From the IMG/VR virus record IMGVR_UViG_3300044911_000835, positions 13,049 through 77,048 of that record: a stretch of 64,000 nucleotides of DNA; one strand, 5' to 3'. The position numbers were made by a program, and so were the translations under genes. This DNA is from a virus. Every line of letters starts with the position of its first letter. Positions within the stretch are counted from its first letter, which is position 1. Positions 1 to 13,128 of this stretch are shown here, in pieces. The notes under the pieces were generated by a model that did no database searches, had not been told where the DNA came from, and worked only from the letters and a program-made list of their open reading frames with translations.

Positions 1-112
1 AAAGCTTACGAAGAAACAAAGCATTTTAAATGCAAACGACGAAGTATACGCTATCGCTGCCTAAGCTTTAGCTGAGGTTTTGAGACTGTTCCTTATTACC
101 CAATACAGTCTC
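1..112 (+). ncRNA. ssrA: tmRNA coding piece (5' part outside window), probably two-piece/permuted
   Basis: 32-64 gca aac gac gaa gta tac gct atc gct gcc taa = ANDEVYAIAA*, matching the ANDENYALAA tag family; H-type pseudoknot follows (gagg 74-77/cctt 91-94; gagactgt 82-89/acagtctc 105-112); no T-arm or CCA downstream. Confidence 0.85.
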
Positions 113-779: not shown

Positions 780-785
780 ATTAAT

Positions 786-861
786 TGCTCTATAGTGAAG
801 TTGGTTATCACACCAGATTTTGAATCTGGTATCTTTGGTTCGAATCCAAATAGGGCTGCCA
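786..861 (+). tRNA. tRNA-Gln(UUG)
   Basis: cloverleaf; anticodon arm ccaga-ttTTGaa-tctgg; GTTCGAATC; encoded CCA. Confidence 0.93.
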
Positions 862-867
862 AATAAT

Positions 868-941
868 GTCTCACTAGTGTAATGGAAGCACGGCGATCTC
901 CAAAATCGCAAGCCGAGGGTCGGTACCTTGGTGGGATGCCA
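868..941 (+). tRNA. tRNA-Trp(CCA), atypical T-loop
   Basis: gcgat-ctCCAaa-atcgc; acceptor gtctcac/gtgggat; CCA end; T-loop GTCGGTA. Confidence 0.85.
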
Positions 942-950
942 GTATTAATA

Positions 951-1015
951 AGGTGAAAAGGGTAGCTCCCCTGATAGTGCTCAATCCACTATCTAGCCTA
1001 AGAGTTCGATTGAGG
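951..1015 (+). promoter_or_regulatory. structured RNA leader of HNH gene, copy 1
   Basis: aggt/gcct closing stem; ggg/ccc and gatagtg/cactatc hairpins; loop ctcaatc complementary to gattgag overlapping the SD. Confidence 0.65.
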
Positions 1016-1023
1016 AATAAAAG

Positions 1024-1599
1024 GTGTATAGAGAAATAAAAGAAGAAGAATTGAAGTTAGATAAACAGAGAGGTTATTTATACTTCATTGATAAAGATCA
1101 CCCTCTTAAAACTGGAAATGCCTCCTACGTTTTTCTACATAGGCACATGGCCTCTATAAAAGCAGGCTACTGGCTATCTAGTAAGGAGCATGTTCACCAT
1201 ATAGATGAGAATAAATTAAATAATTCTCCAGAAAATCTACACATATGTTCTGCTTCTGAACACGGTAAGTTACATAGTGCGCATTTATGTATAGAAAAAC
1301 TCTGTAAACAGTGTGGAATACTTTTTAAGCAAAAAGAGTCTACACAACTATTTTGTTCTACTGAGTGTAGTAGCAAGTATAGAGTTTTACTAGATGGATT
1401 AACTAAGGAAGAATTAGAACACTTATTATGGACTACTAATTATTCTGAACTAGGAAAACAATTTAAATGTAGTGATAATGGTATAAGAAAGTGGGCGAAA
1501 AGACTTAAATGTACAGTACCTCCTGCATACTTCCATAGTAAGGGCTACTCTGTAGAAAAGAAATTATCAATGTATTTAGAAATTAAAGAAAAAGGATAA
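1024..1599 (+). CDS. HNH homing endonuclease (N-terminal HNH, Zn ribbon, C-terminal HTH-like region)
   Basis: LHRH..HVHHIDENKLNN..NL..EH motif; CKQC...FCSTEC; GTG start with GAGG SD. Confidence 0.85.
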   Translation: MYREIKEEELKLDKQRGYLYFIDKDHPLKTGNASYVFLHRHMASIKAGYWLSSKEHVHHIDENKLNNSPENLHICSASEHGKLHSAHLCIEKLCKQCGILFKQKESTQLFCSTECSSKYRVLLDGLTKEELEHLLWTTNYSELGKQFKCSDNGIRKWAKRLKCTVPPAYFHSKGYSVEKKLSMYLEIKEKG

Positions 1600-1603
1600 A
1601 CGA

Positions 1604-1870
1604 ATGACTAAAGCTGTATATTGTTCACAAATGGTAGATTATGAAGGTATTGTAGAGGAAGATATTGGCTTTTTTGTAGAGGGTAATCGTTTCGAGTTTA
1701 AAGTAGACGTATATGAAGATATGATTACTTTCCGAGACTGTTTAGGCCGTTTCGTACCAGTTGACATTACTCAAATTGATCAAGTTATTGATGCTTTAGT
1801 TACTGCTAGGTCTTTGATGCTAGTGCCTATGGCTCCAGATACTTATGTTGAATCTGATTTGGGTTGCTGA
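1604..1870 (+). CDS. hypothetical protein
   Basis: ORF with AAGGA SD. Confidence 0.6.
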   Translation: MTKAVYCSQMVDYEGIVEEDIGFFVEGNRFEFKVDVYEDMITFRDCLGRFVPVDITQIDQVIDALVTARSLMLVPMAPDTYVESDLGC

Positions 1871-2066
1871 ACAGTTAGAATCTGAACCACCCCAAATACT
1901 TGAAGAATTTCAAGGATTTGAGGTAATAGTAGAGCTTAATGACCCATCCCAGTATTTTTCTAAGTACCAAATTTGGGCAGAGATAGAAAAGCTGCTAAAG
2001 CAAGCCCCTATTAAAGATAGATTAAATACAGTAGAGTACGTGAAAAACAAGTTGAAGAATTTTTAA
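1845..2066 (+). CDS. hypothetical protein
   Basis: ORF in tight operon packing. Confidence 0.5.
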   Translation: MLNLIWVAEQLESEPPQILEEFQGFEVIVELNDPSQYFSKYQIWAEIEKLLKQAPIKDRLNTVEYVKNKLKNF

Positions 2067-2067
2067 C

Positions 2068-2096
2068 TTGTTTTTTTAGTTTAAAGCCTCTATAAT
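2068..2096 (+). promoter_or_regulatory. sigma70-type T5-like promoter
   Basis: TTGTTT-17-TATAAT. Confidence 0.7.
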
Positions 2097-2126
2097 ATTA
2101 TTTCTGAGTTTGAAAAAGGATTTGAA

Positions 2127-2321
2127 ATGACTTTTTGGAAAGTTCCTGGTCAACTATTAATTAATGTATTATGTGAGATAATTCAAGCAAAGTTACTAGG
2201 CTTTGAAAAGCTCGCAATTGAATTTAGGCCTGAATTAGAGAACCAGTTGTTTTCTAGGGGATTTAAAGTTTCTACTATTAAACTTCCTAATAATTATTAC
2301 ACTGTGGTGGATCTAAAATGA
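2127..2321 (+). CDS. hypothetical protein
   Basis: AAGGA SD, directly after promoter. Confidence 0.55.
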   Translation: MTFWKVPGQLLINVLCEIIQAKLLGFEKLAIEFRPELENQLFSRGFKVSTIKLPNNYYTVVDLK

Positions 2322-2527
2322 AAGTAGGTACTTGGGTTCAGTTTGAGAATGAAAATAAACCTATAGGTTATATCATTGGTAAAAAAGAGCATAAGTATCA
2401 GCTTAGACCAACATCTAAAGAATTGATTAGAACTAACCTACATGAACTAGAGTTTGATGTAGATGGTTATGCTACTGAGTATGAACGCAAGAATAAGATC
2501 AATCGTATCATAGAATTTCAAGCTTGA
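2318..2527 (+). CDS. hypothetical protein
   Basis: overlaps the upstream stop (ORF track). Confidence 0.5.
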   Translation: MKVGTWVQFENENKPIGYIIGKKEHKYQLRPTSKELIRTNLHELEFDVDGYATEYERKNKINRIIEFQA

Positions 2528-2552
2528 TACGCAGTTCAATATTCTGTATAAT
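2524..2552 (+). promoter_or_regulatory. sigma70-type promoter ahead of the ncRNA block
   Basis: TTGATA-17-TATAAT. Confidence 0.75.
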
Positions 2553-2570
2553 ATTGTTTATGAAATCGAG

Positions 2571-2740
2571 AAAGGTTTCATAAAGCACACTAGAAGGGTA
2601 CTTAACCTACTAATCGACGGATTAGTAGCCTATGTGAGAGAACCCTTTAATAGGGTTAGGGTCACTATCAAACCGGCCGGCATGATACAAATAGGTGGTT
2701 AAACAGGTTCGATTCCTGTAGTGTGCTTTATGAGACTTTT
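2571..2740 (+). ncRNA. tRNA-like structured RNA (T-arm, long closing helix, multibranch domain)
   Basis: 22-bp closing helix 2571-2592/2719-2740; T-arm cagg-TTCGATT-cctg 2704-2718; several internal hairpins. Confidence 0.65.
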
Positions 2741-2774
2741 GCGTACTGCTCTATGATGCGGAGTACCAGTTGTC

Positions 2775-3370
2775 ACAATAGACCGGAGGTTTAGCGTGCT
2801 CAAGGTAATATCCCAACATACATTAGTATTACTAATGATTACGTGAAAGTTTTATATAACGTCCAGGCTAGGACGCTAAACCAAGCGGACTGTTTATAGA
2901 GGTCGTCCGTAAACTACTATACATCATTTTATCCTGATGTTAAACGGATAGGGTACATAGGCGTTGGAAGCGAAATGTACCTAATAAGGTAAGGAAAGTA
3001 AACGGAGGATGGGAGCTAGTGAAACGTACTGGAACCTTATAGCAGATACCCCACCGGCCTTAGAAATTGATAGTGAACTTAAGATAGCTATCGCCCTTTG
3101 TCAGAGTAGGTTAAAAACTGAAATCTTACTTAAATGAGGGCCAGTAAGTGATAGTTATTTTGCCCATAACTGGAACCTGGCTTAGGTAGAATGTCGCAAA
3201 TTCTACACTGTAGGAAGTTCGTAATGAAAGTTGTTAGTACCAAGAACTATAAATATCGTTGAACTATCAGTCTTATAGTACTAGTAGACTTAAAACAACT
3301 AGGAAATTGGCTTCCCGAGTATGATAGTAAACTGCTCCGACCTTACTAGAAGTCGTTAAACTAGTACCCA
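2775..3370 (+). ncRNA. large (~600 nt) highly structured ncRNA; boundaries approximate
   Basis: no ORF >=60 aa in 2528-3561; about ten helices identifiable by eye. Confidence 0.6.
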
Positions 3371-3378
3371 GTATTCTA

Positions 3379-3460
3379 GAGTGCTGTGGTTAGGGCAGTT
3401 AGGTAACTAACAGGTTAAGACTCCGGTGTGCCCGGACGAGCTGCTCTAACCACAACGCTC
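3379..3460 (+). ncRNA. small three-way-junction RNA E
   Basis: 16-bp helix 3385-3400/3439-3454 enclosing ttag-GTAA-ctaa and tccgg-tgtgc-ccgga. Confidence 0.5.
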
Positions 3461-3469
3461 CCGTATATC

Positions 3470-3536
3470 AATTGGTATTGATGCTTTCTGATTCCACTAT
3501 ATGGATAATGTCTTTGACAAGTTAGTATCAATTCCA
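3470..3536 (+). ncRNA. small stem-closed RNA F ending in CCA
   Basis: aattggtattga 3470-3481/ttagtatcaatt 3522-3533, then CCA. Confidence 0.35.
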
Positions 3537-3561
3537 CAACATTCTAATAAAAGGATTTAAT

Positions 3562-3759
3562 ATGCGTAAAAAACTATTAAGGTCTTGTGGATGTAGAACT
3601 TGTATGCGGGGCAGGCGTACCGCATATGGCCATGTAAGGTTACATCAAGCGGAAAAGCAGCTAAGACAACAATCTAGAATTAATATTGATAAAGCTATAA
3701 AAGGTAATGACCTAGATTTAATTGACATTATCGAAGTTTCTACGGATTACACAGACTAA
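3562..3759 (+). CDS. small basic protein with CxCxxC
   Basis: AAGGA SD; Arg/Lys-rich. Confidence 0.6.
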   Translation: MRKKLLRSCGCRTCMRGRRTAYGHVRLHQAEKQLRQQSRINIDKAIKGNDLDLIDIIEVSTDYTD

Positions 3760-4367
3760 TGCAAATTATTTCACCTTTTAAAGATTACTATGATGTAGGT
3801 ATGCAATATGGTTTCGACCCCAAATTGCAATGGATTAGGCGTACTTCTGACATTGAGGAGTCTAGTCGCTGGCATCATTCTGAATCAATTATTCTACATT
3901 TTTGTGGTAAGACTTATAGAGGTATAGTTGTAAAGTCCGCTTCCTACTACATTAATAGTATGGAAGTAATTTGGGATAATGAACACTACGATAAATATTG
4001 TACAGAAAATAAGGTAAAACCCTTAGAGATTAGTTGGCTAGATAAGTTTTGGATAACTACTAAAGTTAGACCTAAATCCAAGATCATACAGTTAGGACTA
4101 ATTGGTGAGTCTGACATTTTAAATGATAAATATAGTTCTCCGGTAATTTTACAAACTAATAAAGGACTAGAGATTAATCCTTCCTTGAAGTTTATTCAGT
4201 TTTATAAAGTCTATGACCCAGTAACTACATATCAAAAAATTAGTGAATACTTTGGTAACAAGTTTTTTAATGAACCTAAAATGGTTCCAATTTCAGATAA
4301 AGATAGGATTAAACAACATGGATTTACTAAAGAAAGTTTCCGTATGGCTAAGTCCAGCAATAAATAG
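3759..4367 (+). CDS. hypothetical phage protein
   Basis: TAATG coupling; IISxFKDYYD N-terminus. Confidence 0.65.
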   Translation: MQIISPFKDYYDVGMQYGFDPKLQWIRRTSDIEESSRWHHSESIILHFCGKTYRGIVVKSASYYINSMEVIWDNEHYDKYCTENKVKPLEISWLDKFWITTKVRPKSKIIQLGLIGESDILNDKYSSPVILQTNKGLEINPSLKFIQFYKVYDPVTTYQKISEYFGNKFFNEPKMVPISDKDRIKQHGFTKESFRMAKSSNK

Positions 4368-4416
4368 CTTTCTAATTATGTACTGGTTTAGCCTAGAGTG
4401 GCTTAAAGATAAATTT

Positions 4417-4491
4417 GCTTCGTTAACTCAGCGGTAGAGTAACTCCTTTACACGGAGAAGGTCGGCGGTTCAATCCCGTCACGAAGTACCA
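4417..4491 (+). tRNA. tRNA-Val(UAC)
   Basis: anticodon loop ttTACac; acceptor gcttcgt/acgaagt; ACCA. Confidence 0.93.
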
Positions 4492-4508
4492 ACTAATTAA
4501 GGATTTGA

Positions 4509-4760
4509 ATGGAATTTGATATTGAGATTAAGAAAACTACCTATGATAGGGTTCGCTTAAATGACGAAGATATTAAGAAGGTAGTTTTACACTATATTAG
4601 TCGTAAGTATAATATCCGTAAAGATGATTGGGTTGCAGAAGGTGACCTTACACGTGAGGTTGAATACCATGGATCTCACAGTTGGTTTGAGCAAGAAGTT
4701 ATTAGAAAAGTAACTGATTTCGATGTTGCATTACTAACACTTCTTAGAGAATTAAAATAA
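4509..4760 (+). CDS. hypothetical protein
   Basis: AAGGA SD. Confidence 0.6.
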   Translation: MEFDIEIKKTTYDRVRLNDEDIKKVVLHYISRKYNIRKDDWVAEGDLTREVEYHGSHSWFEQEVIRKVTDFDVALLTLLRELK

Positions 4761-4764
4761 TATT

Positions 4765-4838
4765 GGCTCTATCGTATATAGGTATTACCTCGGATTGTCT
4801 ATCCGAAGAACACAGTTCGAATCTGTGTAGAGTCGCCA
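4765..4838 (+). tRNA. tRNA-Asp(GUC)
   Basis: tcgga-ttGTCta-tccga; GCCA end. Confidence 0.92.
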
Positions 4839-4846
4839 GGTTAAAT

Positions 4847-4922
4847 AGTAACGAATGCAATTAGGTGAGCAGCTTGATTCATAATCAAGTGCTATTCGGT
4901 TCGAGGCCGAGCGTTACTACCA
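4847..4922 (+). tRNA. tRNA with CAU anticodon (elongator Met or Ile2)
   Basis: cttga-ttCATaa-tcaag; acceptor agtaacg/cgttact; ACCA. Confidence 0.85.
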
Positions 4923-4925
4923 AAT

Positions 4926-4990
4926 TAACTACTAGAGTTAAGCGCGTTAACTTAATAAGCAGCGGTCGGTAAGCTTTCTAGTAGTTACCA
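4926..4990 (+). ncRNA. small stem-closed RNA C ending in CCA
   Basis: taactactaga 4926-4936/tctagtagtta 4977-4987 + CCA. Confidence 0.4.
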
Positions 4991-5080
4991 CAAGTAGGCT
5001 TCACTTCCTTATCTGCTTCCAGCTGATTAGCTCGTACCTGGAAGTACGGGCGGGATAAGAGTAAGGAAGCCTACTTGTGG
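4988..5080 (+). ncRNA. rod-like hairpin RNA D
   Basis: perfect 15-bp stem 4988-5002/5066-5080 plus cttatc/gataag and cttccag/ctggaag. Confidence 0.5.
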
Positions 5081-5152
5081 TCGTAACTTAACAGGCAAAG
5101 GCTCTGGCTGTGAACTAGAGAGATGCGGATTCGACTTCCGTCGATCACCCCA
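5077..5152 (+). tRNA. tRNA-His(GUG), T at -1
   Basis: tctgg-ctGTGaa-ctaga; C73 discriminator; CCA. Confidence 0.9.
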
Positions 5153-5209
5153 ATAATTTTCGGTCAGCGCCGAACCAACCAAACTGTCAAGATTAAATAA
5201 AGTCACGCA

Positions 5210-5286
5210 CGGCCGTTAGTTTAACTGGAAAGAACCTATGCATACGAAGCATAGAAATGTACGTTCGAATCGTACACGGTCGGCCA
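5210..5286 (+). tRNA. tRNA-Arg(ACG)
   Basis: tatgc-atACGaa-gcata; acceptor cggccgt/acggtcg; GCCA. Confidence 0.92.
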
Positions 5287-5290
5287 ATTA

Positions 5291-5355
5291 AGGCGAAAAG
5301 AGTCATTCTCCTGTTCCTTCCTCGGAACTAGCCTAAGTTTTAGCCCTTGAGGAGG
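5291..5355 (+). promoter_or_regulatory. structured RNA leader of HNH gene, copy 2
   Basis: aggc/gcct; gag/ctc; gttcc/ggaac with loop ttcctc complementary to SD gaggag. Confidence 0.65.
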
Positions 5356-5363
5356 GGTGTATT

Positions 5364-6047
5364 ATGAATGAAGAAATAATAGAAGAAATATATAATAAAT
5401 TAGTTGAACGATTTGGTATTGGTGACGTGTTTTTACCTAAGTATGGAAAAAGAAAATCAGACTTAACCTGGAAACAGTTCATTAAAGCTGCTTTAGAACT
5501 AAAGTTAGAGGAACTCACTATTTATTGTGGATTTACGTTTAGTAAAGGCCTAAGTAGAGCTTTAAAAGAAAAATATCCTGGTATTATACAAGATAAAAAT
5601 GGAGAATACTGGTTTCTATACCTATCTAAGTTTCTTAGTAAGAAAAGATGCTCACAATGTCTAGAAGTATTAGAATATAAAGAATTTAACTATAATTCAT
5701 CAACAAAAGATGGATTTAGTTCTACTTGTAGACATTGCGACAAAGAATACAGAGACCTAAATAAAGAGCATATATTAGCACATAGTAAACAATATTACAG
5801 TAAGCATAAAAAAGAAATTAGTGCTAATAAAGCTAAACGTAGGGCTACAAAACTACAAGCAACCCCAAATTGGGCAAACCTGATAGCCATAAAAGAAATT
5901 TATCGAACTTGCCCTGAAGGTTATCATGTAGATCACATAGTTCCCTTACAAAACGACTTAGTATGTGGGCTTCATTGTGAATTTAATCTTCAACATCTAT
6001 CTGCTAGCGAAAATTTAAGTAAAGGAAATAGATTTGAAGTAGATTAA
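5364..6047 (+). CDS. HNH homing endonuclease (C-terminal HNH)
   Basis: CSQC..CRHC Zn ribbon; YHVDHIVPL..VCGLH..NLQ..ENLSKGN. Confidence 0.88.
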   Translation: MNEEIIEEIYNKLVERFGIGDVFLPKYGKRKSDLTWKQFIKAALELKLEELTIYCGFTFSKGLSRALKEKYPGIIQDKNGEYWFLYLSKFLSKKRCSQCLEVLEYKEFNYNSSTKDGFSSTCRHCDKEYRDLNKEHILAHSKQYYSKHKKEISANKAKRRATKLQATPNWANLIAIKEIYRTCPEGYHVDHIVPLQNDLVCGLHCEFNLQHLSASENLSKGNRFEVD

Positions 6048-6081
6048 GACCAAATTAAAGCAAGATTGAATAAATTCAATC

Positions 6082-6110
6082 TTGCTTTTTTGCGCTATGG
6101 CGGGTATAAT
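6082..6110 (+). promoter_or_regulatory. sigma70-type promoter
   Basis: TTGCTT-17-TATAAT. Confidence 0.75.
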
Positions 6111-10131: not shown

Positions 10132-10234
10132 CCAGCTCTACCGAGATTTAGGCTTACATATAGCAGCTTTAGTCCTACTGTCCACTATTCTAGGTGCTAG
10201 TTTAATGTATGGATTAATGAGGATTTTTTCATGA
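10121..10234 (+). CDS. 37-aa single-TM peptide (not in ORF track)
   Basis: MRSNQLYRDLGLHIAALVLLSTILGASLMYGLMRIFS; AGGAG SD; ATGA coupling to ligase. Confidence 0.55.
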   Translation: MRSNQLYRDLGLHIAALVLLSTILGASLMYGLMRIFS

Positions 10235-12828: not shown

Positions 12829-13128
12829 ATGAAGGTAACAATAACTTATTATGACAACGACTCTCTCACGATTGAAGAAGTTGTTGCCCGCGCCAAACAC
12901 GCATACGGAGATTTTGTTGAAGTTTCCGTGCAACCAACAAGCAATAAGCCTTCAGATATGCTTTACTTTGCTTTGCAACAAATGTTAACTCACGAACAGC
13001 TATCAATATTTTTTGATGACAAGAATCAGTATCCTGCTAGACTAGGTAAGTTGCGTTCTGAAACATTAGCAGCAGTACAAAAGGAATTATCAGCAGTAAT
13101 TAAGGATAATGAAATAAAGGTAACTTAG
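12829..13128 (+). CDS. hypothetical protein
   Basis: GGAG SD. Confidence 0.6.
   Translation: MKVTITYYDNDSLTIEEVVARAKHAYGDFVEVSVQPTSNKPSDMLYFALQQMLTHEQLSIFFDDKNQYPARLGKLRSETLAAVQKELSAVIKDNEIKVT

Follow-up and report, generated by a model that had tools for sequence, protein, structure and literature searches.

No selfish genes are commoner in lytic phages than those of homing endonucleases, which drive gene exclusion between competing phages; to our knowledge, the control of their expression has been elucidated in only a few T4-type cases that involve simple hairpins. As set out in the passages of two articles that deal with this subject, homing-endonuclease genes of T-even-type phages such as I-TevI and Aeh1 mobE carry in their 5' untranslated region (UTR) hairpins that sequester the ribosome-binding site and limit translation (Gibb and Edgell, as cited in PMC2677866; reviewed in PMC2988022). 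These hairpins are described there as simple two-strand structures, often with a late promoter (TATAAATA) inside, and late transcripts escape the repression (PMC2677866, PMC2988022). The corresponding passages of Dassa et al. 2009 (PMC2677866) report conserved hairpins upstream of endonuclease open reading frames (ORFs) in 'fractured genes' from marine metagenomes, for which attenuated translation was proposed. Here we analysed a window of 64,000 nucleotides of viral DNA (IMG/VR record IMGVR_UViG_3300044911_000835, positions 13,049 to 77,048; positions given below for the window count from its first letter), in which two HNH endonuclease genes are each headed by an RNA leader made of a three-way junction and a separate hairpin that holds the Shine-Dalgarno (SD) sequence. 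Judged by sequence comparison, both elements are members of a widespread RNA family of virulent phages that is absent from Rfam, and the leader is probably a cis-acting, portable translational brake at the 5' end of free-standing homing-endonuclease mRNAs.

The shared frame, the helices and the loops that a first, sequence-only reading of the window had placed in the two leaders are all present (Table 1). In each copy a short helix P1 closes a junction with P2 and P3; the arms of P2 and P3 differ between the copies yet pair in both (GGG/CCC against GAG/CTC in P2, a 7-bp P3 against GTTCC/GGAAC), the loop of P3 (L3) is complementary to the ribosome-binding region in both, and the distances of the leaders from the preceding tRNA genes are as that reading gave them. 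The core frame occurred in none of 100 shuffles of the window and each core, folded in isolation, formed the three-way junction. Searches with two covariance models, R1 (built from four copies) and R2 (built from 88 seed sequences and covering P1 to P4), found no copies other than these two in the 77-kb record. The two nucleases are unrelated (BLASTP E = 0.99) and have the HNH_3 domain at the N-terminus in one case and the endonuclease-VII-like HNH domain at the C-terminus in the other, which agrees with the earlier claim that the genes are not duplicates of each other. A homologue of the copy 1 ORF, found behind another leader (L180a), has an ATG at the codon where the copy 1 ORF starts, the copy 2 ORF is a member of a set of seven leader-headed paralogues and orthologues, and the two HNH genes detected in this genome by the A3 and HNH_3 models both carry a leader.

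A strict pattern scan of IMG/VR returned two true relatives, both in one 114-kb phage, and R1 matched twice in the genome of the window and six times in this related phage, all eight matches lying 19-25 nt before nuclease ORFs. Scanning IMG/VR with a 19-nt type-A core with two free positions gave at least 120 stretches, from which at least 89 unique type-A leaders were obtained. A type-B form, alike in design but differing in the sequences of P1 and P2 and carrying GAAAG, GAACC or GACAC in the junction strand J1/2 and AUA in J3/1, was found at loci fetched by similarity to the copy 2 nuclease. A looser pattern, GAAAAG-N15-45-TAGCCTAAG, was discarded, as its matches in IMG/VR, apart from those of the window, were all chance matches and mostly coding. 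Among cultured phages, Escherichia phage EP_H11 carries one typical leader (OP688485.1, 22497-22573; L329:5996-6074) in an unannotated gap downstream of the DNA polymerase gene and of the short ORF behind it; the leader precedes a 303-aa ORF without Pfam or PHROG family, which might encode a mobile nuclease that has escaped recognition. Among the genomes of 185,579 prokaryote species the exact 19-nt core occurred once, on a 4-kb contig of a metagenome-assembled genome, and this near absence argues that the leader is an element of virulent phages and not of cells or prophages. Phage T5, which has HNH genes in its tRNA region, has no leader (best R1 match E = 0.6), and megablast of window positions 780-6100 against GenBank phages gave a tRNA match only. 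The sequence-only reading had recognised no named motif, and indeed Rfam 15 (4227 models, those for HEARO, hammerhead, purine, preQ1 and SAM-II among them) gave no match overlapping either window leader at the gathering score or at E <= 10, with tRNAs alone reaching threshold, and none on type-A or type-B relatives at E <= 1. No description of the leader was found in the full-text literature; an unnamed entry among 8,495 IMG/VR candidate RNAs (PMC10690425) may overlap the family.

The fold was examined in an alignment of the R2 matches (A6; 95 sequences, of which 80 are distinct), which was fitted to the model and holds many related sequences. Leaders are 75-85 nt long, with a linker of 4-15 nt between the junction and a further hairpin, P4. 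Over the 80 distinct sequences of A6, standard pairs fill 93.1% of the cells as compared to 67.5% after shuffling, the covariation score is 0.656 as compared to 0.19 in shuffled alignments and does not exceed 0.134 if the 3' partners are shifted by 1-3 columns, and each of the 18 modelled pairs changes on both sides. G-U pairs are common, with 26 at one P4 pair for example, and their frequency makes the fold specific to the sense strand, that of the gene. The unpaired part of the junction is conserved as well, namely the GA that starts J1/2 and the UA of J3/1, the latter in at least 90% of cases although it lies outside the search pattern. The loops of P2 are often four-base palindromes (AGCU, GGCC, UGCA), which may reflect RNA-RNA pairing or a DNA palindrome and, in type B, may be a by-product of perfect inverted repeats.

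In every copy the complement of L3 lies in the loop of P4 (L4). The junction and the pairing with the SD region proposed by the sequence-only reading stand, and since the SD partner of L3 is located in a hairpin loop, what had been called a pseudoknot is a loop-loop kiss. The stems of P4 covary (TTC/GAA, TATTC/GAATA, GCCA/TGGC, GACAC/GTGTC, GTCT/AGAC), and the stem that flanks the kissing site reaches 3 bp or more in 97% of the 80 distinct leaders as compared to 57% with shuffled flanks (88% as compared to 29% for at least 4 bp). L3 mostly starts with CC or CU. It pairs with the bases at the end of the P4 loop, where the SD begins with its first GG or AG; the remainder of the SD lies in the 3' strand of P4, and the SD, being split between loop and stem, is therefore buried where two helices join. 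The kiss is 5-7 bp long, and in most leaders 8-10 nt separate the end of its site from the ATG. With 42 different L3 loops, the Watson-Crick run between L3 and its cognate SD has a mean length of 5.64 nt as compared to 3.14 nt for non-cognate combinations, and none of 20,000 permutations reached the observed value, so that the covariation of loop and SD, whose lack in homologues would have told against the sequence-only reading, is present. A direct example is offered by copy 1 and its closest relative, one of the two leaders first found in the 114-kb phage (L120/L123), which is nearly identical to copy 1 but has CUUAACU/AGUUAAG in place of CUCAAUC/GAUUGAG, amounting to three double compensatory changes within the kiss.

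One type-B leader (L147:1440-1500) has undergone a natural deletion of its 5' half, in which the 5' strand of P1, P2 and the 5' strand of P3 were lost and a CCT microhomology is found at the joint; the 3' arm of P3, the 3' strand of P1 and the SD hairpin are kept, with an intact nuclease ORF behind.

The genes behind the leaders are diverse. Among 82 distinct ORFs behind type-A leaders, 60 form a single endonuclease-VII-like HNH cluster, and the remainder falls into 17 clusters that include HNH_3 (with AP2), HNH_2, His-Me, GIY-YIG with NUMOD motifs, LAGLIDADG, PDDEXK_5, Vsr-like DUF559 and T5orf172/MUG113 proteins. When R2 was run on 80 loci retrieved through similarity to HNH proteins, it matched 39 times, always on the strand of the gene and ending at the start of the ORF, and nowhere else on either strand of these loci (263 kb). 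Two leaders with an intact junction, L210:2866-2946 and one in L297 (minus strand, near 10198 of the reverse complement), are not followed by any ORF and may represent what stayed behind when the nuclease gene was lost.

Upstream context was counted over 78 distinct leaders. A strong sigma-70-like promoter (-35 box with at most one mismatch, -10 box ending 0-12 nt before the leader) lies just upstream of 21 of them, as compared to 0-1 of 78 at six control offsets, which places P1 on or close to the RNA 5' end. The late-promoter word TATAAATA directly precedes the entire leader in 3 of 78. In one type-B leader (L133:1480-1495) this T4-type word lies inside the leader, in the linker between the 3' strand of P1 and the SD hairpin, the sole such case seen. 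A tRNA gene is present within 250 nt upstream of nine leaders and directly upstream of four, both window copies included. For these two copies the 5' end of the RNA is probably made by maturation of the tRNA 3' end.

The sequence-only reading had also proposed that the leader is portable, and the comparison of copy 1 with L123 bears this out: the similarity is limited to 74 nt, the leader alone (window positions 949-1022), neither flank is related, and the two ORFs come from different nuclease families. Since similarity stops at the leader edges, the leader acts like a self-contained module. The phage of the window is common in lake-water metagenomes, and contigs from four metatranscriptome runs of two studies span tRNA, leader and ORF, which is compatible with co-transcription, it being understood that contigs are blind to RNA ends, strand and level and that DNA carry-over is possible. 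In record 2 of one of these runs (X16), corresponding to window positions 859-1001, a lake strain variant keeps the tRNA-Trp and the junction and then continues into an SD hairpin of the L123 type (loose end CTAAGTATTCAGTTAA); this hybrid argues that leader variants are exchanged at the site within the population.

Table 1. Coordinates of the two leaders, their structural elements and the adjoining genes in the window.
Feature	Position	Strand	Description	Basis
tRNA-Trp	868..941	+	upstream of leader copy 1, 9-nt gap	ARAGORN; Rfam tRNA 41.7 bits
Copy 1, whole folded element including P4	951..1017
Leader copy 1, three-way junction	951..999	+		sequence; isolated fold; R1 63.3 bits, R2 66.3 bits (948-1024)
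Copy 1 P1	951..954 / 996..999		AGGT / GCCT
Copy 1 J1/2	955..959		GAAAA
Copy 1 P2	960..970		GGG-TAGCT-CCC; stem 960-962/968-970, loop TAGCT
Copy 1 J2/3	971..972		CT
Copy 1 P3	973..979 / 987..993		GATAGTG / CACTATC
Copy 1 L3	980..986		CTCAATC, complementary to L4 GATTGAG (1008-1014), 7 bp
Copy 1 J3/1	994..995		TA
Copy 1 hairpin P4	1005..1017	+	stem TTC 1005-1007 / GAA 1015-1017; SD GAGGAA straddles the loop/stem boundary	sequence; loop/flanking-stem analysis; three compensatory double changes as compared to relative L123
HNH_3-type homing-endonuclease-like ORF	1024..1599	+	191 aa, GTG start	ORF list; Pfam HNH_3 4e-11; PHROG HNH endonuclease 4e-28
tRNA-Arg	5210..5286	+	upstream of leader copy 2, 4-nt gap	ARAGORN; Rfam tRNA 49.1 bits
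Copy 2, whole folded element including P4	5291..5357
Leader copy 2, three-way junction	5291..5334	+		sequence; isolated fold; R1 72.6 bits, R2 44.4 bits (5288-5366)
Copy 2 P1	5291..5294 / 5331..5334		AGGC / GCCT
Copy 2 J1/2	5295..5299		GAAAA
Copy 2 P2	5300..5310		GAG-TCATT-CTC; stem 5300-5302/5308-5310, loop TCATT
Copy 2 J2/3	5311..5312		CT
Copy 2 P3	5313..5317 / 5324..5328		GTTCC / GGAAC
Copy 2 L3	5318..5323		TTCCTC, pairs with GAGGAG (5349-5354), 6 bp including one G-U
Copy 2 J3/1	5329..5330		TA
Copy 2 hairpin P4	5344..5357	+	stem CCC 5344-5346 / GGG 5355-5357; loop TTGAGGAG 5347-5354	sequence; loop/flanking-stem analysis
ORF with C-terminal endonuclease-VII-like HNH domain	5364..6047	+	227 aa	ORF list; alignment A3; PHROG 1035 1.5e-20; tblastn matches annotated HNH/endonuclease VII

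From the fold, its covariation, its position and the genes behind it we infer repression, whether constitutive or switched, and the leader most likely keeps the nucleases poorly translated. The junction would point P3 back at P4 across the short linker, allowing the kiss to form; kiss and P4 would then mask the SD in two adjoining helices and hold down binding of the 30S ribosomal subunit, and a potentially toxic nuclease would be made at a low level. The leader would occupy the 5' end of the RNA or lie close to it, this end being set by the upstream promoter or, in the window, by tRNA 3' maturation, and promoter, leader and nuclease gene would travel together as a cassette. Several points weigh against this brake. 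The energies of single-sequence folding are unremarkable as compared to shuffles (z = -0.2 to -1.0) and two copies alone are weak evidence, so that the support rests on covariation in relatives; when copy 1 is folded at full length by RNAfold, an alternative pairing supplants the 4-bp P1. The type-A search pattern fixes J1/2, P2 and J2/3, where conservation is consequently overstated, and the RNA data consist of contigs, which cannot show RNA 5' ends. Finally, a passive brake leaves P2 and the conserved junction (GA of J1/2, UA of J3/1) unexplained because a plain hairpin suffices to mask an SD, and this leaves room for a switch driven by a ligand or a host factor.

Such a conditional switch, in which the junction would be an aptamer or a protein-binding site and a small molecule, an ion or a host factor would make or break the L3-L4 kiss, is possible though unlikely. 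The architecture is riboswitch-like, with near-invariant unpaired GA and UA, covarying helices and a platform that masks the SD; the conserved core, covarying helices and expression platform by which riboswitches are recognised are all found here, with the caveat that the search pattern exaggerates how conserved P2 and J1/2 are. On the other hand, the regulated genes are nucleases of many folds without a shared metabolic pathway and suggest no ligand, no Rfam riboswitch model matches, the kiss requires only P3 and P4, and these two would form even in the absence of the junction, and a survey of 62 leaders revealed neither a conserved alternative (ON-state) pairing nor a second target of L3. 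Secondary sites that had been considered as a 'decoy' target of L3 are scattered 5-nt matches at chance level. As to what might be sensed, a binding protein common to the phages was considered and rejected: ORF clusters are shared by at most four of the six leader-bearing genomes (three groups), and since none occurs in all six a dedicated phage protein is unlikely and the factor would come from the host or be a metabolite. In its far-reaching form this idea makes the junction a sensor, either an aptamer of a new class or the place where a universal host factor binds; by gating the kiss it would let lytic phages turn on all their homing endonucleases, of whatever fold, upon a single cellular signal, and this form is a shade more doubtful. 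A weaker possibility is that the P2 loops, which are often self-complementary, let leader RNAs pair with each other. A hammerhead or other ribozyme was also considered for the junction and rejected; among the core strands CUGANGA, GAAA and UH a GAAA-like one alone is present, J2/3 being CU and J3/1 (C/A)UA, and Rfam gave no match.

That the leader mainly protects or defines the 5' end of the mRNA, P1 and the junction shielding the first nucleotides from 5'-end-dependent decay with SD masking as a secondary effect, is improbable. P1 does lie within a few nucleotides of a predicted transcription start in the 21 leaders with a promoter and just after a tRNA 3' end in the four mentioned above, but many leaders have no recognisable promoter or tRNA directly upstream, and the tight, covarying L3-L4 pairing centred on the SD would be left unexplained.

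The exact coincidence of the copy 1-L123 homology with the leader edges, in front of different ORFs, and the frequent perfect DNA palindrome of P2 in type-B leaders would fit a module acting at the DNA level, in which the conserved 75 bp or so would be an operator or, on the model of the promoter-stem-loop cassettes of T4-type phages, a recombination handle for cassettes, RNA structure being incidental. We consider this highly improbable, as compensatory changes, G-U pairs (C-A mismatches on the other strand) and loop-SD covariation indicate selection on the sense-strand RNA, and a leader held in common may bring about the swapping of cassettes as a side effect.

Activation by tRNA 3' processing and autoregulation by the encoded HNH protein, both put forward in the sequence-only reading, are hardly credible for the family: the two window copies, L180a, L180b and L221 do follow tRNA or tRNA-like genes directly, but only 4 of 78 leaders stand directly after a tRNA, and the same leader heads HNH, GIY-YIG, LAGLIDADG and PD-(D/E)XK genes, at least four unrelated nuclease folds, so that no single protein domain can be the common binder.

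Three further features of the window were observed. A 1-kb stretch free of ORFs (2528-3561) is covered by contigs from RNA libraries that peak over its central 550 nt or so (2872-3414), where the word depth as compared to the flanking genes is 5062 to about 70 in run X17, 1026 to 25 in X18 and 205 to about 7 in X19, while X16 shows an excess that is less pronounced; such depths suggest that a non-coding RNA, abundant and stable, is made here, for which Rfam gave no match at E <= 10. At the beginning of the window (1-110), sub-threshold matches to transfer-messenger RNA (tmRNA) models (beta_tmRNA, 33 bits, 27-110; tmRNA_permuted, 28.5 bits, E = 0.006, 1-64, cut by the window edge) point to a possible piece of a phage-encoded, permuted tmRNA. 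Between tRNA-Met and tRNA-His, positions 4980-5089 form a near-perfect inverted repeat with about 45 bp per arm, which attracts spurious Rfam matches to microRNA precursors.

The presence of one highly conserved, strongly covarying fold in front of HNH, GIY-YIG, LAGLIDADG and PD-(D/E)XK genes of unrelated phages, and its near absence from cells, suggests a common portable module for nuclease expression, and the leader is a good candidate for an Rfam family. Since EP_H11 carries a typical copy, the leader is directly testable in Escherichia coli. L3 is a natural anti-SD loop that can be re-addressed and might serve as a synthetic translational throttle; if it is true that the junction senses something, the leader would represent a new class of regulatory RNA.

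Another structured RNA beside an HNH-domain gene is HEARO (HNH Endonuclease-Associated RNA and ORF; the omega RNA of IscB), the long guide RNA of an IS200/IS605 element. Beyond this shared neighbourhood the two differ, with no Rfam HEARO match on the leaders (E <= 10 in the window, E <= 1 in relatives). The nearest known counterparts of the leader are the RBS-sequestering hairpins of T-even phages and the 'fractured genes' hairpins. With the former the leader shares the homing-endonuclease gene and a structure in the 5' UTR that occludes the ribosome-binding site in cis; it differs from them by its three-way junction and its separate SD hairpin held in a kiss, and has no sequence homology with them. 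An embedded late promoter is likewise not a feature of the leader, TATAAATA lying inside L133 only and the sigma-70-like promoters lying upstream of P1. The 'fractured genes' hairpins are similar in being 5' UTR structures found across free-standing GIY-YIG and Vsr-like endonucleases of uncultured phages; going by their description in the relevant text each consists of one hairpin that contains two complementary motifs and a late-promoter box, no three-way junction or kiss being described there (PMC2677866). In its architecture the leader resembles the SD-pairing riboswitches (preQ1-II/III, SAM-II/V, NAD+-II), which share with it a small junction or pseudoknot, invariant unpaired nucleotides, covarying helices and a tertiary pairing that masks the SD, with the difference that the leader regulates nucleases and matches no Rfam riboswitch model. 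The purine riboswitch also combines a three-way junction with a loop-loop kiss, whereas in the leader the kiss joins the junction domain to an external hairpin that carries the SD.

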